From Escherichia coli (GTDB taxonomy: Bacteria; Pseudomonadota; Gammaproteobacteria; Enterobacterales; Enterobacteriaceae): 64,000 bases of DNA. How positions within the stretch are numbered: the stretch's first letter is position 1; each line of letters opens with the position of its first letter. The stretch lies in NCBI RefSeq assembly GCF_003334305.1, contig NZ_QOWS01000001.1; one strand, given 5' to 3'. Under the pieces are notes generated by a model, which did no database searches, was not told where the DNA came from, and saw nothing but the letters and a program-made list of their open reading frames with translations. Below are positions 3,017 through 46,738 of this stretch, one piece after another. A program made the position numbers and the translations under genes.

Positions 3017-4147
3017 ATGTTCCAGTTATCCGTACAGGACATCCATCCGGGCGAAAAGGCCGGAGACAAAGAAGAGGCGATTCGCCAGGTCGCTGCGGCG
3101 CTGGTGCAGGCCGGTAATGTAGCAGAAGGCTACGTCAATGGCATGCTGGCGCGCGAACAGCAAACCTCAACGTTCCTCGGCAATGGTATTGCTATTCCAC
3201 ACGGCACTACCGACACCCGCGATCAGGTGCTGAAAACCGGCGTTCAGGTATTTCAGTTCCCGGAAGGCGTCACCTGGGGTGACGGTCAGGTAGCGTACGT
3301 GGCAATCGGTATTGCTGCCAGCTCGGATGAACATCTGGGCCTGCTACGCCAGCTGACCCACGTACTGAGCGATGATTCCGTTGCTGAACAACTGAAGTCA
3401 GCAACAACAGCAGAAGAACTTCGCGCATTACTGATGGGCGAAAAGCAGAGTGAGCAGCTGAAGCTCGACAACGAAATGCTGACGCTGGATATCGTCGCCA
3501 GCGATCTGCTGACTCTTCAGGCGCTGAACGCTGCGCGTCTGAAAGAGGCGGGGGCAGTTGACGCCACTTTCGTCACCAAAGCCATCAATGAACAACCGCT
3601 GAATCTCGGACAGGGTATCTGGCTGAGCGATAGCGCCGAAGGCAATCTGCGTAGCGCGATTGCGGTAAGCCGTGCGGCAAATGCTTTTGATGTGGACGGC
3701 GAAACGGCAGCCATGCTGGTGAGTGTGGCGATGAATGACGATCAGCCCATCGCGGTTCTTAAGCGTCTCGCTGATTTATTGCTCGACAATAAAGCTGACC
3801 GCTTGCTGAAAGCGGATGCGGCAACGTTGCTGGCGCTGCTGACCAGCGATGATGCGCCGACCGACGACGTGTTAAGCGCGGAGTTTGTGGTGCGCAATGA
3901 ACACGGCCTGCATGCTCGTCCAGGTACCATGCTGGTCAATACCATTAAACAATTTAACAGTGATATTACCGTGACAAACCTTGATGGTACCGGCAAACCG
4001 GCAAACGGACGTAGTCTGATGAAAGTTGTGGCACTTGGCGTTAAGAAAGGTCATCGCCTACGCTTTACCGCCCAGGGTGCAGATGCTGAACAGGCGCTGA
4101 AAGCAATCGGCGACGCTATCGCTGCTGGTCTTGGGGAGGGCGCATAA
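3017..4147 (+). CDS. fruB: Fructose PTS diphosphoryl transfer protein FPr (FruB), 376 aa
   Basis: 376-aa ORF with an EIIA-like N-terminus and HPr-like C-terminus (GLHARPGT motif); first gene of the fruBKA order. Confidence 0.93.
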
Positions 4148-6976: not shown

Positions 6977-7116
6977 AGTGTTCCTGTTCTGTGCATCCCG
7001 TCACAAATTCCTCGCTTTTGTAATTCAGGCATTTAATCGCATTTTGTGAGCCTGCTCAAATCTGCCCATTTTGCCTCTCTGGCGGTAATTTACTTTACGT
7101 AAAACATGCATACTAT

Positions 7117-7150
7117 GAGCACATGTTTAAATATGAACACATGTTTAAAC
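7117..7150. promoter_or_regulatory. Tandem direct repeat (2 x 16 bp) in the psuK upstream region, candidate regulator binding site
   Basis: gagcACATGTTTAAAt and gaacACATGTTTAAAc, 2 bp apart, about 70 bp upstream of the psuK ATG; function unknown. Confidence 0.3.
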
Positions 7151-7216
7151 CGTCTTTGCAGTATCTATATTCTTGTGGATTGACAGGGTTGGTAATTTTT
7201 TACCAGAGGACGTGCT

Positions 7217-8158
7217 ATGCGCGAAAAGGATTATGTCGTAATTATAGGTTCGGCGAATATTGATGTCGCCGGATATTCACATGAATCATTAAATTATGCG
7301 GATTCAAATCCAGGTAAAATAAAATTTACGCCTGGTGGAGTAGGGCGCAATATTGCACAAAACCTGGCGTTGCTGGGTAACAAAGCCTGGCTACTGAGCG
7401 CAGTAGGCAGTGATTTTTATGGTCAATCGCTGCTAACGCAAACCAATCAATCTGGCGTTTATGTCGATAAATGCCTGATTGTGCCGGGAGAAAATACGTC
7501 TAGTTATTTATCATTACTCGATAATACCGGTGAAATGCTGGTTGCTATAAATGACATGAATATTAGCAACGCTATTACAGCTGAATATCTCGCACAGCAC
7601 CGTGAATTTATTCAGAGGGCAAAGGTCATTGTCGCAGACTGTAATATCAGTGAAGAGGCACTGGCATGGATTCTGGATAATGCCGCCAACGTACCCGTAT
7701 TTGTCGATCCGGTTTCAGCGTGGAAATGTGTCAAAGTGCGCGACCGTCTAAATCAGATCCACACTCTGAATCCAAACCGCCTTGAAGCGGAAACACTGAG
7801 TGGGATTGCGCTGTCAGGGCGTGAAGATGTGGCAAAAGTTGCTGCCTGGTTCCATCAACATGGCCTGAACCGACTGGTATTGAGCATGGGCGGCGATGGC
7901 GTTTATTACAGTGATATCAGCGGTGAAAGTGGCTGGTCTGCCCCGATCAAAACCAATGTTATTAATGTTACCGGAGCGGGCGATGCCATGATGGCGGGAC
8001 TTGCTTCGTGTTGGGTAGACGGAATGCCGTTTGCCGAATCTGTTCGTTTCGCACAGGGATGTTCGTCAATGGCGCTCTCCTGTGAATACACCAATAACCC
8101 CGATTTATCGATTGCCAACGTTATATCGTTAGTGGAGAACGCAGAATGTCTGAATTAA
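7217..8158 (+). CDS. psuK: Pseudouridine kinase PsuK (YeiC), 313 aa
   Basis: pfkB-family sugar/nucleoside kinase (GAGDAMMAG motif); overlaps psuG. Confidence 0.9.
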   Translation: MREKDYVVIIGSANIDVAGYSHESLNYADSNPGKIKFTPGGVGRNIAQNLALLGNKAWLLSAVGSDFYGQSLLTQTNQSGVYVDKCLIVPGENTSSYLSLLDNTGEMLVAINDMNISNAITAEYLAQHREFIQRAKVIVADCNISEEALAWILDNAANVPVFVDPVSAWKCVKVRDRLNQIHTLNPNRLEAETLSGIALSGREDVAKVAAWFHQHGLNRLVLSMGGDGVYYSDISGESGWSAPIKTNVINVTGAGDAMMAGLASCWVDGMPFAESVRFAQGCSSMALSCEYTNNPDLSIANVISLVENAECLN

Positions 8159-9084
8159 AAATTTCCCCTGAATTATTACAAATTTCCCCGGAAGTGCAGG
8201 ACGCTTTAAAAAACAAAAAACCGGTTGTGGCGCTGGAATCGACCATTATTTCTCACGGGATGCCGTTCCCACAAAATGCCCAGACCGCAATTGAAGTAGA
8301 AGAAACTATTCGTAAACAGGGCGCAGTACCTGCCACTATCGCCATTATTGGCGGCGTGATGAAAGTGGGTTTAAGCAAAGAAGAAATTGAATTACTGGGT
8401 CGTGAAGGGCATAACGTGACCAAAGTTAGTCGTCGCGATTTACCTTTTGTTGTTGCCGCCGGAAAAAATGGCGCAACCACTGTGGCTTCAACGATGATTA
8501 TTGCGGCGCTTGCCGGAATTAAAGTATTTGCCACCGGGGGAATTGGTGGTGTGCATCGCGGGGCGGAACATACCTTCGATATTTCTGCCGATTTGCAAGA
8601 ACTGGCAAATACTAATGTCACCGTTGTTTGTGCCGGGGCGAAATCTATTCTCGATTTAGGATTAACAACAGAATATTTAGAAACCTTCGGTGTGCCGTTA
8701 ATTGGCTATCAGACAAAAGCGCTGCCTGCGTTTTTCTGCCGTACCAGCCCATTTGAAGTCAGTATTCGCCTTGATAGTGCCACGGAAATCGCTCGTGCAA
8801 TGGCAGTGAAATGGCAAACCGGTTTGAACGGCGGCCTGGTAGTGGCGAATCCGATCCCGGAACAGTTTGCGATGCCGGAGGAATCTATCAATGCAGCCAT
8901 AGATCAAGCCGTCGCCGAAGCCGAAGAGCAGGGCGTTATTGGTAAAGAAAGTACACCGTTCCTGCTGGCGCGCGTTGCTGAGCTGACCGGCGGTGACAGC
9001 CTGAAATCCAATATCCAGCTGGTGTTCAACAACGCCATTCTGGCGAGTGAAATTGCCAAAGAATACCAGCGTCTCGCGGGTTAA
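8146..9084 (+). CDS. psuG: Pseudouridine-5'-phosphate glycosidase PsuG (YeiN), 312 aa
   Basis: 312-aa ORF overlapping the psuK 3' end by 13 nt; position and length match YeiN. Confidence 0.9.
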   Translation: MSELKISPELLQISPEVQDALKNKKPVVALESTIISHGMPFPQNAQTAIEVEETIRKQGAVPATIAIIGGVMKVGLSKEEIELLGREGHNVTKVSRRDLPFVVAAGKNGATTVASTMIIAALAGIKVFATGGIGGVHRGAEHTFDISADLQELANTNVTVVCAGAKSILDLGLTTEYLETFGVPLIGYQTKALPAFFCRTSPFEVSIRLDSATEIARAMAVKWQTGLNGGLVVANPIPEQFAMPEESINAAIDQAVAEAEEQGVIGKESTPFLLARVAELTGGDSLKSNIQLVFNNAILASEIAKEYQRLAG

Positions 9085-9177
9085 TTTCTGACGGGCAGAA
9101 AGCCGTCGCCCGTACTCATCAAGCATACCAAAACCTGGCGCTGACGCCGGGTTTACTGGCATGAAGGGAAAATCATT

Positions 9178-10428
9178 ATGGATATAATGAGAAGTGTTGT
9201 GGGGATGGTGGTGTTACTGGCAATAGCATTTCTGTTGTCAGTGAATAAAAAGAGCATCAGTTTGCGCACGGTTGGAGCCGCACTGCTGCTGCAAATCGCT
9301 ATTGGTGGCATCATGCTCTACTTCCCACCGGGAAAGTGGGCAGTAGAACAGGCGGCATTAGGCGTTCATAAAGTGATGTCTTACAGTGATGCCGGTAGCG
9401 CCTTCATTTTTGGTTCGCTGGTTGGGCCGAAAATGGATGTCCTGTTTGACGGTGCGGGTTTTATCTTCGCCTTTCGCGTACTTCCGGCGATTATTTTCGT
9501 TACTGCGCTCATCAGTCTGCTGTACTACATTGGCGTGATGGGGCTGCTGATTCGCATCCTTGGCAGCATTTTCCAGAAAGCTCTTAACATCAGCAAAATC
9601 GAATCTTTTGTCGCAGTCACAACTATTTTCCTCGGGCAAAATGAGATCCCGGCGATCGTTAAACCGTTTATCGATCGCATGAATCGCAACGAGTTGTTTA
9701 CCGCAATTTGTAGCGGGATGGCGTCCATTGCTGGTTCGATGATGATTGGTTATGCCGGAATGGGCGTACCAATTGACTACCTGTTAGCGGCATCGCTGAT
9801 GGCGATCCCAGGTGGTATTTTGTTTGCACGTATTCTTAGCCCGGCCACCGAGCCTTCACAGGTCACATTTGAAAATCTGTCGTTCAGCGAAACGCCGCCA
9901 AAAAGCTTTATCGAAGCGGCGGCGAGCGGTGCGATGACCGGGCTGAAAATCGCCGCTGGTGTAGCGACGGTGGTAATGGCGTTTGTCGCAATTATTGCGC
10001 TGATCAACGGCATTATCGGCGGAATTGGTGGCTGGTTTGGTTTCGCCAATGCCTCTCTGGAAAGTATTTTTGGCTATGTGCTGGCACCGCTGGCGTGGAT
10101 CATGGGTGTGGACTGGAGTGATGCCAATCTTGCGGGTAGCCTGATTGGGCAGAAACTGGCGATTAACGAATTCGTCGCTTACCTGAGTTTCTCCCCATAC
10201 CTGCAAACGGGCGGCACGCTGGAAGTGAAAACCATTGCGATTATCTCCTTTGCGCTTTGTGGTTTTGCTAACTTTGGTTCTATCGGTGTTGTCGTTGGCG
10301 CATTTTCGGCTATTTCGCCAAAACGCGCGCCGGAAATCGCCCAGCTTGGTTTACGGGCGCTGGCAGCAGCAACGCTTTCCAACCTGATGAGTGCGACCAT
10401 TGCCGGGTTCTTTATTGGTTTAGCTTGA
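9178..10428 (+). CDS. psuT: NupC-family nucleoside transporter PsuT (YeiM), 416 aa
   Basis: 416-aa polytopic membrane protein; very similar to the ORF at 12365..13615. Confidence 0.9.
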   Translation: MDIMRSVVGMVVLLAIAFLLSVNKKSISLRTVGAALLLQIAIGGIMLYFPPGKWAVEQAALGVHKVMSYSDAGSAFIFGSLVGPKMDVLFDGAGFIFAFRVLPAIIFVTALISLLYYIGVMGLLIRILGSIFQKALNISKIESFVAVTTIFLGQNEIPAIVKPFIDRMNRNELFTAICSGMASIAGSMMIGYAGMGVPIDYLLAASLMAIPGGILFARILSPATEPSQVTFENLSFSETPPKSFIEAAASGAMTGLKIAAGVATVVMAFVAIIALINGIIGGIGGWFGFANASLESIFGYVLAPLAWIMGVDWSDANLAGSLIGQKLAINEFVAYLSFSPYLQTGGTLEVKTIAIISFALCGFANFGSIGVVVGAFSAISPKRAPEIAQLGLRALAAATLSNLMSATIAGFFIGLA

Positions 10429-10433
10429 GTTTC

Positions 10434-10473
10434 ATTGCCGGATGTATGCGCTTATTAAGTGTTGCATCCGGCA
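10434..10473. repeat. REP-like palindromic element between convergent psuT and yeiL
   Basis: TTGCCGGATG ... CATCCGGCAA inverted repeat typical of REP units. Confidence 0.5.
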
Positions 10474-10495
10474 ATCGCGCTATTGCAAATAATTT

Positions 10496-11155
10496 TTACT
10501 GCATCATCCCGGAGAATTTATTCTCCGGGTCCATCTCCAGCGCCAGTCCTGACAACTGCTTTCTGTTTTTAATTAGATACCCTTTCTTGCTTTTAATTAA
10601 TAAACCGTCGTGAATGAATTGCGCGAGAACATATAAAAGATGTCGATAAGAAACGCCTAAATACTCTGCCGCTTGCGTATGCTTTTCGTGATAAAGATCA
10701 CCTTCCTGCGAGAGTAATATAAATGCTGCCAGGCGATTCACTAACGGAAATGATTGATTCTGAGTTAAAGAAACAATATTACGATAATTTTTATGACTTA
10801 AGGTGACGCAGAGTTTTCGTAAAAATAGCGTGTCGTTTAATAACCGCGGGCGGTAATGTTTCATAGGGAGCGCAAGGCACCAACACTCTTCAATAGCCTG
10901 CACCGCACGCGGTTCATGGTCTTTGTCAATTAACTCAATCTCGCCAATAAAACAGGGGGCGGCAAAGAAATCGATCAGCGACACGCGACCATTAGCTAGC
11001 GTGGCGTAAAGCCTGGCGCGGCCTCGCGTCAGGTAAAACAGCCAGGACGGCTGTTGCCCTTCCTGCACAATGTAGTCACGCGCTAAAAAATGAAACAGCC
11101 GCGTATCGGCTGAAACATCCGTTAAAAAGCAATCCTTAAACGCGGATTCACTCAT
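10496..11155 (-). CDS. yeiL: CRP/FNR-family transcriptional regulator YeiL, 219 aa
   Basis: ORF 10496..11194; start placed at internal ATG 11155 ([10 protein letters not shown]...) to give the expected 219 aa; cNMP-binding fold followed by an HTH. Confidence 0.85.
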
Positions 11156-11323
11156 CAATTGCTGCTTAAGATCATTATTGTGGATTTCTTTCACGATGTT
11201 TATCCGCTATGAGATTTCTCATATTTAGCATACGTACGCGGTTGGTAAGATTCAATCATCGGCCCGGTCGAATTTTCTTTGCTGTAGAAAAAATAACGCA
11301 ACTGGAAACAGAGGAAATAAACA

Positions 11324-12265
11324 ATGGAAAAGAGAAAAATTATTCTGGATTGTGATCCGGGTCATGATGATGCTATTGCAATGATGATGGCAGCGAAACA
11401 TCCGGCAATAGATTTATTAGGCATCACTATTGTAGCGGGTAATCAGACGCTTGATAAAACATTAATTAATGGCCTGAATGTTTGCCAGAAACTGGAGATT
11501 AATGTTCCGGTTTATGCGGGGATGCCGCAACCCATTATGCGTAAACAAATCGTTGCCGATAATATTCACGGTGAAACCGGACTGGATGGCCCGGTATTCG
11601 AGCCGCTGACCCGCCAGGCAGAAAGTACCCACGCGGTGAAATACATCATTGATACCCTGATGGCAAGCGATGGCGATATCACTCTGGTGCCGGTTGGTCC
11701 GCTTTCAAATATCGCGGTGGCAATGCGTATGCAACCCGCGATCCTGCCCAAAATCCGTGAAATTGTGCTAATGGGCGGCGCTTACGGTACAGGCAACTTC
11801 ACGCCATCTGCCGAGTTCAACATCTTTGCTGACCCGGAAGCAGCCCGCGTGGTGTTCACCTCTGGCGTTCCATTAGTGATGATGGGCCTCGATCTTACCA
11901 ACCAGACCGTTTGCACCCCGGACGTGATTGCTCGGATGGAAAGGGCAGGCGGCCCTGCCGGAGAGCTGTTCAGCGACATCATGAACTTCACTCTCAAAAC
12001 GCAGTTCGAAAACTACGGCCTGGCTGGCGGCCCGGTGCACGACGCCACCTGCATCGGTTATCTGATTAACCCTGATGGCATTAAAACCCAGGAGATGTAC
12101 GTCGAAGTGGACGTCAACAGTGGCCCTTGCTATGGGCGCACCGTCTGCGACGAGCTGGGCGTTCTTGGCAAGCCCGCCAATACCAAAGTCGGCATCACTA
12201 TTGATACCGACTGGTTCTGGGGCTTAGTCGAAGAGTGCGTGCGCGGCTACATCAAAACCCATTAA
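11324..12265 (+). CDS. rihB: Pyrimidine-specific ribonucleoside hydrolase RihB (YeiK), 313 aa
   Basis: N-terminal DCDPGHDDA nucleoside hydrolase signature. Confidence 0.9.
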
Positions 12266-12364
12266 GCGTTGATAACAAGCCGGGCCGATAGCGCAAGATG
12301 CAGGCCCGGCTATCTCTGATGGGCAGAAAGCCGTCGCCCAATATGACATGAAGAGATAATCACT

Positions 12365-13615
12365 ATGGATGTCATGAGAAGTGTTCTGGGAATGGTGGTA
12401 TTGCTGGCAATTGCATTTTTGCTGTCAGTAAACAAGAAGAAGATCAGCCTGCGTACCGTTGGCGCGGCGTTAGTGTTACAGGTTGTGATTGGCGGCATTA
12501 TGCTTTGGTTACCGCCAGGGCGTTGGGTCGCTGAAAAAGTCGCTTTTGGCGTGCATAAAGTGATGGCGTACAGCGACGCGGGTAGCGCATTTATCTTCGG
12601 TTCGCTGGTCGGTCCGAAAATGGACACGCTGTTTGATGGCGCAGGATTTATCTTTGGTTTCAGAGTATTACCGGCAATTATCTTCGTTACAGCACTGGTG
12701 AGTATTCTCTACTACATCGGTGTGATGGGGATTTTAATTCGCATTCTCGGCGGTATCTTCCAGAAAGCGTTAAATATCAGCAAGATCGAGTCATTCGTCG
12801 CGGTCACTACCATTTTCCTCGGGCAAAACGAAATTCCGGCAATCGTCAAACCCTTTATCGATCGGCTGAATCGCAATGAATTATTTACAGCGATTTGTAG
12901 TGGCATGGCCTCGATTGCTGGTTCGACAATGATTGGTTACGCCGCACTGGGCGTGCCTGTGGAATATCTGCTGGCGGCATCGTTAATGGCGATCCCTGGC
13001 GGGATCTTGTTTGCCCGCCTGTTAAGTCCGGCAACGGAATCTTCTCAGGTTTCCTTTAATAACCTCTCTTTCACCGAAACACCGCCAAAAAGCATTATTG
13101 AAGCCGCTGCGACAGGGGCAATGACCGGGCTGAAAATCGCCGCCGGTGTAGCGACAGTTGTTATGGCATTTGTCGCCATCATTGCGTTAATTAACGGTAT
13201 TATCGGCGGCGTTGGCGGCTGGTTTGGTTTTGAACATGCCTCGCTGGAGTCCATTTTAGGTTACCTGCTGGCCCCACTTGCGTGGGTAATGGGTGTTGAC
13301 TGGAGTGATGCAAATCTTGCCGGGAGTTTGATTGGACAGAAACTGGCAATAAATGAATTTGTCGCTTATCTCAATTTCTCACCCTATCTGCAAACGGCTG
13401 GCACTCTGGATGCTAAAACCGTGGCGATTATTTCCTTCGCGTTGTGCGGTTTCGCTAACTTTGGTTCTATCGGGGTGGTGGTGGGGGCGTTTTCTGCGGT
13501 TGCGCCACACCGTGCGCCGGAAATCGCCCAGCTTGGTTTACGCGCGCTGGCGGCGGCGACACTTTCTAATCTGATGAGTGCCACCATTGCCGGGTTCTTT
13601 ATTGGTTTAGCGTAG
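12365..13615 (+). CDS. nupX: NupC-family nucleoside transporter NupX (YeiJ), 416 aa
   Basis: 416-aa paralogue of psuT with near-identical sequence along its length. Confidence 0.9.
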   Translation: MDVMRSVLGMVVLLAIAFLLSVNKKKISLRTVGAALVLQVVIGGIMLWLPPGRWVAEKVAFGVHKVMAYSDAGSAFIFGSLVGPKMDTLFDGAGFIFGFRVLPAIIFVTALVSILYYIGVMGILIRILGGIFQKALNISKIESFVAVTTIFLGQNEIPAIVKPFIDRLNRNELFTAICSGMASIAGSTMIGYAALGVPVEYLLAASLMAIPGGILFARLLSPATESSQVSFNNLSFTETPPKSIIEAAATGAMTGLKIAAGVATVVMAFVAIIALINGIIGGVGGWFGFEHASLESILGYLLAPLAWVMGVDWSDANLAGSLIGQKLAINEFVAYLNFSPYLQTAGTLDAKTVAIISFALCGFANFGSIGVVVGAFSAVAPHRAPEIAQLGLRALAAATLSNLMSATIAGFFIGLA

Positions 13616-13639
13616 TGCGCAATTTATGAGCCGGATAAG

Positions 13640-13674
13640 ATGCGGTCAAGCGTCGAATCCGGCAACATTGTTAC
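13640..13674. repeat. REP-like palindromic element between convergent nupX and yeiI
   Basis: GCCGGATAAG ... ATCCGGCA inverted repeat. Confidence 0.5.
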
Positions 13675-14759
13675 ACCATTGGCACTAATGAAAGCGCGTT
13701 ATCGGCAGACAGGGTAGGGTTGTTTAAGCTGCCGCTGGCGCGCGAAATTGCCGCGCAGGCTACCGCAAAACGGGCGCTGTCGCGGAAACTGTATCCTTCA
13801 AGAAAGCTATATACCAAGCCCGCCATAAAACCATCGTCAGCACCAAAACTGTCTACTGTCGTATGCGCTGGCGCGGTCAGCAAAAATTGTTCTCCATCCT
13901 TTTCGCTGCAATAAACTGACTCATCGGGCAAATAAACAAACAGTTGCTGAACACCTTGCTGATGCAATGCATTCACTGCGGCATTACGGTCAGCATCGCT
14001 GGTGATCGCCTGTCCCCATAAAATTTCCAGCTCCGGTAAAGTGGGTTTCAGGGTGTGAATATGCGCCAGCCAGTGTTTGATTTTGCCCGCTTTGAATTCT
14101 GAAACGGTATCGACAAACACCGGGATTTCATCAGCGAGGGTAAAGACCCATTCCAGCGCCTCGGCTGTCAGGTTGCAATCAGCCAGTACCACGCCCGCAT
14201 GACGAAGTAAATCGCGCGACCCGTTCAGTAGTTGCGGTGTCAACTGTTCCAGCAGATGGGTATCGTTAATCGCCAGCACGGTTTGATCGTCTCGATTGGC
14301 AATTGCCAGATACGTCGATGTGCTTTGACCATGCAAACGAACGCAGCCGGAGACATTCACGCCGGCACGGCGCGTTTCTTCCAGGAGCATTTCGCCATAA
14401 AAGTCATCGCCAATCACTGAAAGCAAATGGACGTCACGGCCTAACAGCGCCAGATTGTGGGCGATGTTGCGTCCCACGCCGCCCGCCGAGCAATGAATTG
14501 TACCGGGATGAGAAGCCGCTTGCGGGTAACGGATATCCGCCATCCCGCGAATATCCATATTGATTGTCCCCACCACTACGCAGTATTCCTGCTCGGTGAG
14601 AATGTAACCTTTGCCTTTAATCCGCCCTTTGCGCATTAAATCCATAATATGCGCCGCAACGCGCGAACGACTGATTTGCAGCATGTCCGCAATTTCGTTC
14701 TGCTGAATCAGCGGGTTACGCCGTAAAATTGCAAGGATCTCCTTTTCCCGGTTATTCAT
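13671..14759 (-). CDS. yeiI: HTH-domain plus pfkB-family kinase YeiI, 362 aa
   Basis: N-terminal HTH (MNNREKEILAILRRNP...) fused to a pfkB kinase domain resembling PsuK. Confidence 0.9.
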   Translation of the reverse strand: MNNREKEILAILRRNPLIQQNEIADMLQISRSRVAAHIMDLMRKGRIKGKGYILTEQEYCVVVGTINMDIRGMADIRYPQAASHPGTIHCSAGGVGRNIAHNLALLGRDVHLLSVIGDDFYGEMLLEETRRAGVNVSGCVRLHGQSTSTYLAIANRDDQTVLAINDTHLLEQLTPQLLNGSRDLLRHAGVVLADCNLTAEALEWVFTLADEIPVFVDTVSEFKAGKIKHWLAHIHTLKPTLPELEILWGQAITSDADRNAAVNALHQQGVQQLFVYLPDESVYCSEKDGEQFLLTAPAHTTVDSFGADDGFMAGLVYSFLEGYSFRDSARFAVACAAISRASGSLNNPTLSADNALSLVPMV

Positions 14760-14761
14760 CT

Positions 14762-15619
14762 TCAGGCTACCGCTTTTTCAGTTTGTTGCGCTTTCAGCCA
14801 GGCGATCTCTTCTGCCCAGATATCCGGGTTGATGGTTTCAAGGATCAGCGGAATGCCGTCGAAACGGTCGTCTTGCATGATCCAGCGGAACGCATCATGA
14901 CCGATATTGCCTTCACCGAGGCTATGATGGCGGTCAACGCGGCTGCCAAAGGTACTTTTCGCATCGTTAAGGTGCATCCCGCGCAGATACTTAAAGCCAA
15001 CAATACGGGCAAAATCCGCGAACGTTTTCTCGCATTCGGCTGGAGTACGCAAATCATACCCGGCAGCGAAAGCATGGCAGGTATCAATGCAGACGCCGAC
15101 ACGGGATTTATCTTCCACGCCGTCGATAATCGCCGCGAGATGTTCGAATTTAAACCCTAAGTTACTGCCCTGACCGGCGGTGTTTTCAATCACCGCTGTT
15201 ACACCTTGAGTTTTATCCAGCGCAATGTTGATGGATTCGGCAATACGCGCAAGGCAATCCTCTTCTGAAATCTGCATCAGATGGCTGCCAGGGTGGAAGT
15301 TGAGCAAAGAAAGCCCCAGTTGTTCGCAACGCTGCATTTCATCTATAAAGGCATCGCGCGATTTTTCCAGAGCTTCAGTGACCGGATGTCCGAGGTTAAT
15401 CAGATAGCTGTCGTGGGGAAGAATTTGCGCCGATGTGTAGTGATATTTTTCACAGGCCGCTTTGAATTCATCGATGGTTTGCGTCGTGAGCGGTGCGGCA
15501 CGCCACTGACGTTGGTTTTTGGTGAACAAGGCAAACGCGGTTGCGTCGATTTCGGCGGCGCGAATTGCGGCATTTGCCAGACCGCCAGCAGCACTAACGT
15601 GCGCTCCAATGTATTTCAT
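14762..15619 (-). CDS. nfo: Endonuclease IV (Nfo), 285 aa
   Basis: [14 protein letters not shown]... AP endonuclease family 2 N-terminus; length 285 aa. Confidence 0.93.
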
Positions 15620-44440: not shown

Positions 44441-46738
44441 ATGAAATGGCTATGTTCAGTAGGAATCGCGGTGAGTCTGGCCCTGCAGCCAGCACTGGCG
44501 GATGATTTATTCGGCAACCATCCATTAACGCCCGAAGCGCGGGATGCGTTCGTCACCGAACTGCTTAAGAAAATGACAGTTGATGAGAAAATTGGTCAGC
44601 TGCGCTTAATCAGCGTCGGCCCGGATAACCCGAAAGAGGCGATCCGCGAGATGATCAAAGACGGTCAGGTTGGGGCGATTTTCAACACCGTAACCCGTCA
44701 GGATATCCGCGCCATGCAGGATCAGGTGATGGAATTAAGCCGCCTGAAAATTCCTCTTTTCTTTGCTTACGACGTGCTGCACGGTCAGCGCACGGTGTTC
44801 CCGATTAGCCTCGGTCTGGCCTCGTCTTTTAACCTCGATGCAGTGAAAACGGTCGGACGTGTCTCTGCTTATGAAGCGGCAGATGATGGCCTGAATATGA
44901 CCTGGGCACCGATGGTCGATGTCTCGCGCGATCCGCGCTGGGGACGTGCTTCCGAAGGTTTTGGCGAAGATACGTATCTCACCTCAACAATGGGTAAAAC
45001 CATGGTGGAAGCGATGCAGGGTAAAAGCCCGGCAGATCGCTACTCGGTGATGACCAGCGTCAAACACTTTGCCGCATACGGCGCGGTAGAAGGCGGTAAA
45101 GAGTACAACACCGTCGATATGAGTCCGCAGCGCCTGTTTAATGATTATATGCCGCCGTACAAAGCGGGGCTGGACGCAGGCAGCGGCGCGGTGATGGTGG
45201 CGCTGAACTCGCTGAACGGCACGCCAGCCACCTCCGATTCCTGGCTGCTGAAAGATGTTCTGCGCGACCAGTGGGGCTTTAAAGGCATCACCGTTTCCGA
45301 TCACGGTGCAATCAAAGAGCTGATTAAACATGGCACGGCGGCAGACCCGGAAGATGCGGTGCGCGTGGCGCTGAAATCCGGAATCAACATGAGTATGAGC
45401 GACGAGTATTACTCGAAGTATCTGCCTGGGTTGATCAAATCCGGCAAAGTGACGATGGAAGAGCTGGACGATGCTGCCCGCCATGTACTGAACGTTAAAT
45501 ATGATATGGGATTGTTTAACGACCCATACAGCCATTTGGGGCCGAAAGAGTCTGACCCGGTGGATACCAATGCCGAAAGCCGCCTGCACCGTAAAGAAGC
45601 GCGTGAAGTGGCGCGCGAAAGCCTGGTGTTGCTGAAAAACCGTCTCGAAACGTTACCGCTGAAAAAATCGGCCACCATTGCGGTGGTTGGGCCACTGGCG
45701 GACAGTAAACGTGACGTGATGGGCAGCTGGTCCGCAGCCGGTGTTGCCGATCAATCCGTGACCGTACTGACCGGGATTAAAAATTCCGTCGGTGAAAACG
45801 GTAAAGTGCTGTATGCCAAAGGGGCGAACGTTACCAGTGACAAAGGCATTATCGATTTCCTGAATCAGTATGAAGAAGCGGTCAAAGTCGATCCGCGTTC
45901 GCCGCAAGAGATGATTGATGAAGCGGTGCAGACGGCGAAACAATCTGATGTGGTGGTGGCTGTAGTCGGTGAAGCACAGGGGATGGCGCACGAAGCCTCC
46001 AGCCGGACCGATATCACTATTCCGCAAAGCCAACGTGACTTGATTGCGGCGCTGAAAGCCACCGGTAAACCGCTGGTGCTGGTGCTGATGAACGGGCGTC
46101 CGCTGGCGCTGGTGAAAGAAGATCAGCAGGCTGATGCGATTCTGGAAACCTGGTTTGCGGGGACTGAAGGCGGTAATGCAATTGCCGATGTATTGTTTGG
46201 CGATTACAACCCGTCCGGCAAGCTGCCAATGTCCTTCCCGCGTTCTGTCGGGCAGATCCCGGTGTACTACAGCCATCTGAATACCGGTCGCCCGTATAAT
46301 GCCGACAAGCCGAACAAATACACTTCGCGTTATTTTGATGAAGCTAACGGGGCGTTGTATCCGTTCGGCTATGGGCTGAGCTACACCACTTTCACCGTCT
46401 CTGATGTGAAACTTTCTGCGCCGACCATGAAGCGTGACGGCAAAGTGACTGCCAGCGTGCAGGTGACGAACACCGGTAAGCGCGAGGGGGCCACGGTAGT
46501 GCAGATGTACTTGCAGGATGTGACGGCTTCCATGAGTCGCCCTGTGAAACAGCTGAAAGGCTTTGAGAAAATCACCCTGAAACCGGGCGAAACTCAGACT
46601 GTCAGCTTCCCGATCGATATTGAGGCGCTGAAGTTCTGGAATCAACAGATGAAATATGACGCCGAGCCTGGCAAGTTCAATGTATTTATCGGCACTGATT
46701 CCGCACGCGTTAAGAAAGGCGAGTTTGAGTTGCTGTAA
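44441..46738 (+). CDS. bglX: Periplasmic beta-glucosidase BglX (GH3), 765 aa
   Basis: ORF 44369..46738; start at 44441 (MKWLCSVGIAVSLALQPALA signal peptide) with upstream GAGGAAG. Confidence 0.93.
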   Translation: MKWLCSVGIAVSLALQPALADDLFGNHPLTPEARDAFVTELLKKMTVDEKIGQLRLISVGPDNPKEAIREMIKDGQVGAIFNTVTRQDIRAMQDQVMELSRLKIPLFFAYDVLHGQRTVFPISLGLASSFNLDAVKTVGRVSAYEAADDGLNMTWAPMVDVSRDPRWGRASEGFGEDTYLTSTMGKTMVEAMQGKSPADRYSVMTSVKHFAAYGAVEGGKEYNTVDMSPQRLFNDYMPPYKAGLDAGSGAVMVALNSLNGTPATSDSWLLKDVLRDQWGFKGITVSDHGAIKELIKHGTAADPEDAVRVALKSGINMSMSDEYYSKYLPGLIKSGKVTMEELDDAARHVLNVKYDMGLFNDPYSHLGPKESDPVDTNAESRLHRKEAREVARESLVLLKNRLETLPLKKSATIAVVGPLADSKRDVMGSWSAAGVADQSVTVLTGIKNSVGENGKVLYAKGANVTSDKGIIDFLNQYEEAVKVDPRSPQEMIDEAVQTAKQSDVVVAVVGEAQGMAHEASSRTDITIPQSQRDLIAALKATGKPLVLVLMNGRPLALVKEDQQADAILETWFAGTEGGNAIADVLFGDYNPSGKLPMSFPRSVGQIPVYYSHLNTGRPYNADKPNKYTSRYFDEANGALYPFGYGLSYTTFTVSDVKLSAPTMKRDGKVTASVQVTNTGKREGATVVQMYLQDVTASMSRPVKQLKGFEKITLKPGETQTVSFPIDIEALKFWNQQMKYDAEPGKFNVFIGTDSARVKKGEFELL

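Follow-up and report, generated by a model that had tools for sequence, protein, structure and literature searches.

A predicted, previously uncatalogued RNA hairpin in the psuT and nupX leaders with a putative regulatory role

Results

Gene content of the locus and shared leader blocks

The stretch of Escherichia coli DNA analyzed here (contig NZ_QOWS01000001.1 of assembly GCF_003334305.1; 64,000 nucleotides (nt), hereafter the window) comprises the fruA-psuK-psuG-psuT-yeiL-rihB-nupX-yeiI-nfo region, as assigned from a list of open reading frames (ORFs) and the RefSeq annotation of a K-12 MG1655 record. Our subject is a short hairpin, HP1, that lies in the leaders of two transporter genes of this region, psuT and nupX. 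The relevant genes, in window coordinates, are as follows.

7217-8158, plus strand: psuK
8146-9084, plus strand: psuG
9178-10428, plus strand: psuT, a NupC-family (CNT) transporter of 416 amino acids, the final gene after psuK-psuG
10496-11194, minus strand: yeiL
11324-12265, plus strand: rihB
12365-13615, plus strand: nupX, the paralogous CNT transporter of 416 amino acids, 3' of rihB in the yeiL-rihB-nupX module
13671-14759, minus strand: yeiI

PsuT and NupX are co-linear paralogues. The first-pass annotation had called them near-identical, which is too strong: 368 of 416 residues agree (~88%), nucleotide identity is 78.7%, and fourfold-degenerate sites are only 47% identical (91/193). In an amino-acid tree the psuT clade lies apart from the nupX clade across genera, and at synonymous sites the difference between the paralogues is as large as that between genera, roughly 50%. 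Therefore, the duplication is older than the split of the sampled genera. No long gene-conversion tract was seen in the E. coli psuT and nupX coding sequences, nor any segment of them in which the paralogues are clearly closer than the orthologues.

Similarity also extends into the leaders, in two blocks that had been described at first pass and that are both present as described. Block 1, TGA(C/T)GGGCAGAAAGCCGTCGCCC, lies at 9089-9111 and 12317-12339. Its 19-nt core, GGGCAGAAAGCCGTCGCCC, occurs in exactly two copies in the window (9093-9111 and 12321-12339), which are identical and lie 66 nt from the psuT start codon and 25 nt from that of nupX. Allowing up to three mismatches returned just those two sites in 64 kb (0.00 expected, from 100 shuffles), and the genome-wide search suggested at first pass found the core motif in 5,425 of 5,426 complete E. 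coli genomes, at a median of two places per genome and a maximum of three. The TCTGA upstream of HP1 is also common to both E. coli copies. Block 2, ATGAAG(G/A)GA(A/T)AATCA(T/C)TATGGAT (9161-9183 and 12348-12370), contains the Shine-Dalgarno sequence, a spacer and the first two codons; it had been presented as a second shared motif, but it is merely the ribosome-binding site and the beginning of the coding sequence. The gap between the blocks is 49 nt in psuT, where it holds a second hairpin, and 8 nt in nupX.

In several E. coli strains the locus is decaying. Two carry nupX as an internal-deletion remnant with HP1 intact (L122 and L123, 6880-7047). Another has lost everything from psuG into the 5' part of rihB to IS1, and the HP1 of its nupX has GCCA instead of GCCC; in yet another, rihB is interrupted by IS1. 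The loci affected by IS1 are L124 (2076-2846) and L121 (6067-6836).

HP1 is predicted to fold as an RNA hairpin

Block 1 corresponds to HP1, the 5' edge of the duplicated unit. Together with the other parts of the two leaders, it maps as follows.

9091-9113, plus strand: HP1, psuT copy; stem ACGGGC/GCCCGU, 11-nt loop AGAAAGCCGUC
9118-9129, plus strand: linker block AUCAAGCAUACC, defined by leader alignment
9131-9154, plus strand: HP2; A-tract, stem CCUGGCG/CGCCGGG (9134-9151), 4-nt loop, UUU
9161-9183, plus strand: psuT translation-initiation block; Shine-Dalgarno AAGGGA, spacer, AUG GAU
12278-12311, plus strand: rihB-proximal hairpin, AGCCGGGCC...GGCCCGGCU, directly past the rihB stop codon
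12320-12340, plus strand: HP1, nupX copy; stem UGGGC/GCCCA, loop same as in the psuT copy
12348-12370, plus strand: nupX translation-initiation block; Shine-Dalgarno AAGAGA, spacer, AUG GAU

The psuT copy begins 7 nt past the psuG stop codon, and 64 nt lie between its end and the psuT AUG; its predicted fold has an energy of −11.1 kcal/mol (z = −2.4), and it matches our covariance model with 40.5 bits. The nupX copy ends 24 nt before the nupX AUG (−8.3 kcal/mol, 35.5 bits). The closing pair is U-A in nupX and C-G in psuT.

Homologues were gathered by one genome-collection scan, twelve contig look-ups and one metagenome pattern scan, to which four E. coli records were added, and the pair statistics below derive from 22 psuT and nupX leaders, all from closely related Enterobacteriaceae. 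The consensus is a G+C-rich stem of 5-7 pairs, (A)CGGGC/GCCCG(U), around an 11-nt loop with the sequence A G W N N G C N G U C, and the stem has a stability of −8 to −12 kcal/mol in all leaders. Standard pairs make up 92.6% of the alignment cells, compared with 31-58% when the 3' partners are slid by one to three columns, and none of 500 shuffles reached the observed paired fraction or covariation score. The variation lies in the outer pairs (G-C 19 and A-U 3; C-G 14, U-A 4 and U.G 3; A-U 13, G-C 3 and G.U 1), so that three pairs have changed on both sides (10 cells) with wobble intermediates present; the three inner G-C pairs show no variation. Strain variants within E. coli at the base of the stem (A-U to G.U, C-G to U.G) likewise keep the pairing.

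The loop itself probably has structure. G6 faces U14 in 21/22 sequences, position 7 is usually U and faces G13, and in the nupX leader of E. hormaechei the entire top of HP1 is canonically paired (−19.5 kcal/mol). Because facing loop positions pair in this way, the top of HP1 is probably an irregular helix (A.C, G.U, U.G) that ends in a small loop with G10 and C11. A G6.U14 wobble would be a C.A mismatch on the opposite strand; the G.U pairs and the U.G intermediates therefore point to a sense-strand RNA, and not to a palindrome in duplex DNA or to an antisense transcript. Taken together, the RNA structure of HP1 is well supported by the comparative sequence data but not proven.

The same substitutions bear on the possibility that the dyad GGGC-N11-GCCC is instead a double-stranded DNA operator, bound by YeiL (CRP/FNR family), YeiI (a helix-turn-helix (HTH)-PfkB protein) or YeiE (LysR). 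The symmetry of the dyad and the regulator genes adjoining it are compatible with an operator, and symmetric G-C to A-T changes would also keep a DNA palindrome. However, the T..G intermediates and the conserved G.U suit RNA and not duplex symmetry. The site also lies within operons, 3' of coding genes and not at promoters, with no related site in the psuK or yeiL-rihB promoter regions or elsewhere in the window, and HP1 is retained at loci that lack an adjoining yeiL or yeiI. The symmetry extends over only 4-5 bp in each arm, with arm centers ~15-16 bp apart, which is wider than CRP/FNR-type sites; these have the layout 5-N4/6-5. A YeiL operator of that type in particular was rejected, the GGGC/GCCC arms being 11 bp apart with no leader promoter and no similar promoter-region site, although this rejection is provisional. 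We consider a DNA operator very unlikely.

HP1 is conserved in sequence and travels with the transporter genes

HP1 is present in 22 psuT and nupX leaders of Escherichia, Citrobacter, Enterobacter, Klebsiella, Kluyvera, Leclercia, Buttiauxella, Superficieibacter, Entomohabitans and metagenome contigs. Mean pairwise identity is 0.94 in the stem (the four invariant G-C pairs and the adjoining covarying G/A-C/U pair) and 0.71 in the loop, and it falls to 0.39 and 0.32 in the few bases of the 5' and 3' flanks. The first-pass annotation had offered, as what would refute its own proposal, that the motif is simply part of a longer duplicated block with no effect on expression when mutated; the sharp drop in the flanks speaks against the duplicated-block part of this. 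Within the loop, G6, G10, C11, G13 and U14 each reach a pairwise identity of at least 0.83, while positions 7-9 and 12 take any base.

HP1 could still lack a function, the match being a remnant of block duplication or the outcome of recent gene conversion between the E. coli copies. In accordance with this, the two copies in E. coli are alike even at those four positions of the loop that are variable in other genera, where the paralogue pairs of Kluyvera and E. hormaechei differ, and they also share the upstream TCTGA. Because four loop positions vary freely elsewhere, the 19/19 match in E. coli is tighter than the constraint on HP1 demands, and chance or a very short conversion tract may have contributed to it. 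Against a lack of function stand the retention of HP1 in both lineages across genera despite a ~50% synonymous difference, the poorly conserved flanks, and the coding sequence, in which no segment brings the paralogues clearly closer than the orthologues; with a neutral identity of 0.47, we calculate that 22/23 identical positions would arise by chance with a probability of the order of 1e-6. Since fourfold sites are only 47% identical and yet both lineages keep HP1, it is not a passive leftover of the duplication, and an absence of function seems highly improbable. Judged from these alignments, HP1 is a selected element kept in both paralogue lineages over at least nine genera. The shared leader motif is thus confirmed as an observation, and the idea of a regulatory site or RNA element retained after the duplication is partly supported: block 1 behaves as a selected element whose variation fits an RNA hairpin, whereas block 2 serves only translation initiation.

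Two other hairpins in the same leaders served as controls. The loop of HP2, of 4-5 nt, is different in almost every genus, and its stem persists through wobble-compatible changes (U.G to C-G, C-G to U.G). Next to rihB some hairpin is found in every nupX leader, with a sequence unrelated between genera. By contrast with these two freely varying hairpins, the HP1 loop is constrained in sequence and not just in shape. This matters for a simpler reading, in which HP1 is a generic intercistronic hairpin without a partner that shields the psuKG or rihB RNA ahead of it against 3' exonucleases, or that stops RNase E from scanning in its 5'-end-dependent mode into the transporter cistron, and so uncouples the decay of the operon halves. 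Hairpins that hinder RNase E scanning are established, and the stable G+C-rich stem in all leaders, its position between cistrons with no promoter in the leader, the unrelated hairpin at the same place in Entomohabitans psuT and the other long hairpin in the Serratia and Hafnia psuT leaders would all suit it. However, a generic hairpin would not hold five loop bases near-invariant over two paralogue lineages while the control hairpins vary in their loop or whole sequence, and we regard this reading as somewhat unlikely.

To survey the distribution of HP1, a covariance model, R1, was built from 18 leaders and run on 88 loci and the window (857 kb in total). It matched psuT and nupX leaders only, including one outside the training set (L001, 7140-7170, 40.2 bits); the best unrelated match, at 46244-46299, scored 19 bits (E = 0.09). 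R1 gave no match 5' of the 73%-identical psuT of Serratia and Hafnia or of ~70 more distant NupC-family genes, with nothing upstream of those of Vibrio, Pasteurellaceae, Burkholderia and Halomonas and nothing elsewhere in the window. In the metagenome pattern scan, all six true matches (6/6) were psuT or nupX leaders. The HP1-free psuT leaders of Serratia, Hafnia and 'Klebsiella sp. BIGb0407' (L006, L007 and L008, ~3870-4000) have another long hairpin in common (CCTGAAAGGTG...CACCTTTCAGG), and also a conserved, promoter-like upstream block, CGTTA(C/T)TCCTTAAGTTTTA.

The position of HP1 relative to the genes differs between the leaders. It lies 6-10 nt past the upstream stop codon in psuT leaders (psuG) and 50-70 nt past it in nupX leaders (rihB), and from its end to the start codon there are 24-64 nt. 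The latter distance varies because the linker and HP2 have been deleted in nupX leaders. HP1 is found 3' of psuG or of rihB and is kept in every genomic placement of the yeiL-rihB-nupX module; it appears to belong to the transporter gene and not to the upstream enzyme gene.

Two overlapping reading frames were considered and rejected. An upstream ORF at ATGAAGGGA has 8 codons in psuT, 3 in nupX and none in the psuT leaders of K. michiganensis and E. hormaechei, which identifies this sequence as a Shine-Dalgarno sequence and not as a leader peptide. The minus-strand ORFs 8698-9162 and 12310-12627, which run over HP1, were judged spurious; the variable positions 7-9 and 12 are not third-codon positions.

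Other leader parts and transcription signals

Downstream of HP1, the linker AUCAAGCAUACC is kept in psuT leaders and in some nupX leaders (K. spallanzanii, Superficieibacter, Entomohabitans) and is deleted in E. coli nupX. HP2, which is terminator-like with a short U-run (UUU or UUUU), is found in all psuT leaders and in K. spallanzanii nupX and is deleted from most nupX leaders. Sequestration of the Shine-Dalgarno sequence by the linker, as seen in the E. coli minimum-free-energy fold, was dismissed, being not conserved in Citrobacter and absent in nupX. The K-12 nupX leader is ~12 nt shorter than that of the divergent Escherichia record L001 (ATAACGGGATCAGACCTGACATG versus AATATGACATG; 12340-12375 and L001 7164-7215). 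In K-12 nupX, AUGACAU pairs with AUGUCAU (codons 2-4), and the predicted hairpin encloses the Shine-Dalgarno sequence and the AUG.

HP1 sits between co-oriented genes without a promoter or terminator call in between: a promoter scan returned no sigma-70-like promoter in either leader, and a terminator scan that requires at least five T called neither HP1 nor HP2. HP1 was also rejected as an intrinsic terminator in its own right, the next sequence being GUACUCAU in psuT and AAUAUGAC in nupX, with no direct U-run. A published genomic SELEX (systematic evolution of ligands by exponential enrichment) table lists an RpoS-holoenzyme peak inside psuG, at 2,255,672 in the coordinates of that paper (PMC5493296). 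By our own conversion, with the yeiE/yeiH peak as anchor, it maps to ~8750 of the window, ~420 nt 5' of the psuT start. Because of this peak, psuT may also have an internal promoter ~400 nt upstream, with HP1 still inside the transcript.

Given the terminator-like HP2, HP1 and HP2 together might form a transcription attenuator that sets read-through into the transporter gene. Either ribosomes terminating at the psuG stop codon 7-10 nt upstream would open HP1, or a factor bound to HP1 would modify RNA polymerase, as in nut- or put-type processive antitermination. The ancestral leader of both paralogues consisted of HP1, the linker and HP2 with its U-run, an arrangement that every psuT leader and that of K. 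spallanzanii nupX have retained; in psuT leaders 6-10 nt separate the psuG stop from HP1, and the CGCC of the HP1 3' arm can pair with the GGCG of the HP2 5' arm. For psuT and for the ancestral leader this reading is plausible. Most nupX leaders, that of E. coli included, have nevertheless lost HP2 yet kept HP1, 50-70 nt from the rihB stop. Moreover, the U-run of only 3-4 nt escapes the terminator scan, and the alternative 2:3 pairing amounts to just 4 bp and is not conserved in E. hormaechei or Leclercia. Attenuation is therefore, in our judgment, unlikely.

A candidate pairing of the HP1 loop with the psuT coding sequence

An RNAduplex search of the HP1 loop against leader and early coding sequence returned one recurrent site, which is specific to psuT.

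9351-9356, plus strand: GGCGGC, psuT nt +174 to +179 (codons Q58-A59-A60), complementary to HP1 loop G10-C15 (9102-9107)

In 13/15 psuT sequences, the variable base 12 of the loop has a pairing partner at the synonymous third position of Ala59, in the combinations C-G, U-A, G-C, U.G and G.U, and no other of the 330 variable columns within the first 600 nt of the psuT coding sequence matches it as well. These counts reflect only two or three independent events, and columns that merely track the split of Escherichia from the others reach 8/10. In nupX, pairing of loop base 12 is at chance level (3/10). We treat this long-range pairing of the HP1 loop with codons 58-60 as a lead and not a finding; it may be due to chance.

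Neighboring genes

PsuK and YeiI, named at first pass as a second paralogous pair, are indeed paralogues (39% identity over 307 residues, E = 8e-77), and YeiI orthologues have an N-terminal HTH_24 match and a PfkB match in Pfam. YeiI aligns to PsuK across the entire kinase domain, carries an extra N-terminal HTH of ~50 residues, and has FGADDGFMAG at the PsuK TGAGDAMMAG (the PfkB GAGD motif). From these features, YeiI might be a ligand-sensing regulator instead of an active kinase.

The yeiL-rihB-nupX genes behave as a movable three-gene module. They lie between psuT and yeiI in E. coli, Kluyvera and Entomohabitans, and not in E. albertii, two Citrobacter species, E. asburiae, K. michiganensis and Leclercia. 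They are 5' of psuK in E. hormaechei, between fruA and nfo in Buttiauxella, and elsewhere in K. spallanzanii, Superficieibacter and C. portucalensis.

Upstream of psuK, a direct repeat (CACATGTTTAAA, two copies 18 bp apart, 7120-7149) overlaps the −35 hexamer of the site at 7144-7171, the only promoter-like site there; the repeat is likely an operator of the psu operon. The psuK promoter region and the yeiL-rihB intergenic region had no common motif beyond 9-10-mers. Palindromes of the repetitive extragenic palindromic (REP) type (GCCGGATG...CATCCGGC) follow both transporter genes, at 10437-10476 and 13629-13674, the latter with a weak match to naRNA4 (19.6 bits, E = 5.8).

Discussion

Comparison with known elements

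HP1 has one trait expected of a cis-regulatory leader stem-loop, a conserved structure with structure-preserving substitutions. Its position between co-oriented genes and its sense-specific G.U pairs argue that it may also lie in the transcribed leader. Among the 4,227 models of Rfam 15, searched against positions 7000-15000 of the window at E up to 10, no family came near its gathering threshold and only isrJ overlapped the leaders; a search of ten homologous loci at gathering threshold found only a tRNA elsewhere. The match to isrJ, a Salmonella small RNA family, covers 9081-9155 (HP1-linker-HP2) at full length and is weak (18.9 bits against a gathering score of 37, E = 7.5). This segment does have a layout like that of a small RNA, with a 5' hairpin, a C/A-rich linker and a terminator-like hairpin, and the match is probably due to chance.

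Among known systems, HP1 resembles protein-binding operator hairpins such as lambda boxB/nut, the MS2 coat-protein operator and the PyrR/BglG targets, which like HP1 consist of a short stem with specific conserved loop bases on the sense strand, 5' of the controlled gene. Nut sites also lie at a variable distance from the gene, and in the ancestral leader HP1 is followed by the terminator-like HP2. This likeness is a functional analogy only. Unlike these operators, HP1 has no known or nearby-encoded cognate protein and no Rfam match, and its loop consensus fits none of them. Intercistronic stabilizer hairpins and REP elements, as in malE-malF, share with HP1 a G+C-rich hairpin between cistrons that could uncouple decay. 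However, REP sequences and bacterial interspersed mosaic elements differ in that REP is multi-copy whereas HP1 has a median of two copies per genome, and the REP-like palindromes of this locus follow psuT and nupX and do not precede them. Stabilizers in general do not need the sequence constraint found in the HP1 loop.

We also compared HP1 with the ops/JUMPStart element recognized by RfaH (RF01707). The 3' half of HP1, G-C-N-G-T-C-G-C-C-C-G, resembles ops (GGCGGTAGnnTG), with an NGTN turn enclosed by a C..G pair and G/T where RfaH reads the sequence, and it fits the consensus pause G(-10) Y(-1) G(+1). Nevertheless, an ops identity was rejected: of the bases G4, G5, T6, A7, G8 and T11 expected in GGCGGTAGnnTG, the E. 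coli sequence G-C-C-G-T-C-G-C-C-C-G has C at ops positions 4, 7 and 11. In ops mutants, G4C and A7T abolish RfaH recruitment and T11G is strongly defective (PMC5995543). HP1 also differs from ops in its location, after the second or third gene of short operons and ahead of the last one, and not at the start of a long RfaH-dependent operon, and its covarying 5' arm plays no role in ops; JUMPStart gave no Rfam match at E up to 10 in window positions 7000-15000. Two further readings, SelB/SECIS-like (selenocysteine insertion sequence; GC-GGUC-GC) and Tgt/anticodon-loop-like (GUN), were dropped in view of the variable position 12, a mini-stem that competes with the main stem and the lack of coding context.

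Small hairpin riboswitches (mini-ykkC/guanidine-II, preQ1-I) are similar in that a tiny hairpin whose loop bases are invariant is followed, across a variable linker, by another hairpin and then by a transporter gene, and the loop size of preQ1-I is akin to the 11 nt of HP1. In contrast to these, the HP2 loop is not conserved and HP2 is often absent, and HP1 has neither an ACGR loop nor a conserved pseudoknot partner. A known riboswitch class was rejected on the absence of an Rfam match and of any conserved alternative pairing of HP1 with the Shine-Dalgarno region or HP2. HP1 might instead be a sensor of its own kind, a minimal aptamer or protein-operator hairpin for a pyrimidine nucleoside signal (pseudouridine, uridine or cytidine) that gates PsuT and NupX, in psuT perhaps through pairing of loop G10-C15 with codons 58-60, but we think this quite unlikely.

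A proposed function for HP1

HP1 is probably a control element of psuT and nupX that has not been described before. Our literature search found the motif sequence in no paper and no regulation data for psuT or nupX; the papers retrieved treat PsuT and NupX merely as putative or weak transporters (PMC11241209). As the best explanation of the data as a whole, to which we assign a probability of about one half, HP1 would be a cis-acting RNA stem-loop in the intercistronic leader of the transporter cistron, recognized sequence-specifically by a trans-acting partner and setting transporter output. It would predate the psuT/nupX duplication and have moved with the transporter gene, not with the upstream enzyme gene. 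The RNA would fold into a G+C-rich stem of 5-7 bp, an A.C mismatch, the conserved G.U, usually a U.G, and a small loop presenting G10 and C11. A protein or RNA partner would read this sequence, and in this way the transporter yield from the psuKGT and rihB-nupX mRNAs would be set apart from that of the enzymes encoded upstream.

We infer such a partner from the combination of conserved loop bases with a spacing to the start codon that ranges from ~25 to 66 nt. This variable distance also argues against direct occlusion of the ribosome-binding site and favors control through processing or stability of the mRNA, or through elongation of the transcript into the transporter gene. What the comparison of leaders shows is HP1 itself, with its structure-compatible variation, its selective constraint and its narrow distribution; its transcription as RNA, a partner and an effect on expression are inferred.

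Several points weigh against this proposal. The psuT leader of Entomohabitans has a different hairpin at the place of HP1, and the loop of E. hormaechei nupX has diverged; because of these departures, the loop sequence is not indispensable. The covariation amounts to few independent events in a short helix in which 3/8 pairs never vary, and part of the conservation is shared ancestry, the sample being closely related Enterobacteriaceae. Finally, Term-seq tables for E. coli contain no 3' end in either intergenic region, and the operons are poorly expressed in the laboratory.

If HP1 were merely a stabilizing hairpin, it would be a routine annotation detail. Conserved structured RNA elements that have escaped cataloguing are uncommon in E. 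coli, however, and almost nothing is known about the control of the psuKGT pseudouridine catabolic operon and of rihB-nupX. With its 21-23 nt and clear targets for mutation, HP1 would open the post-transcriptional control of these importers to direct tests, and it could provide a handle for tuning psuT in engineered strains that produce pseudouridine.

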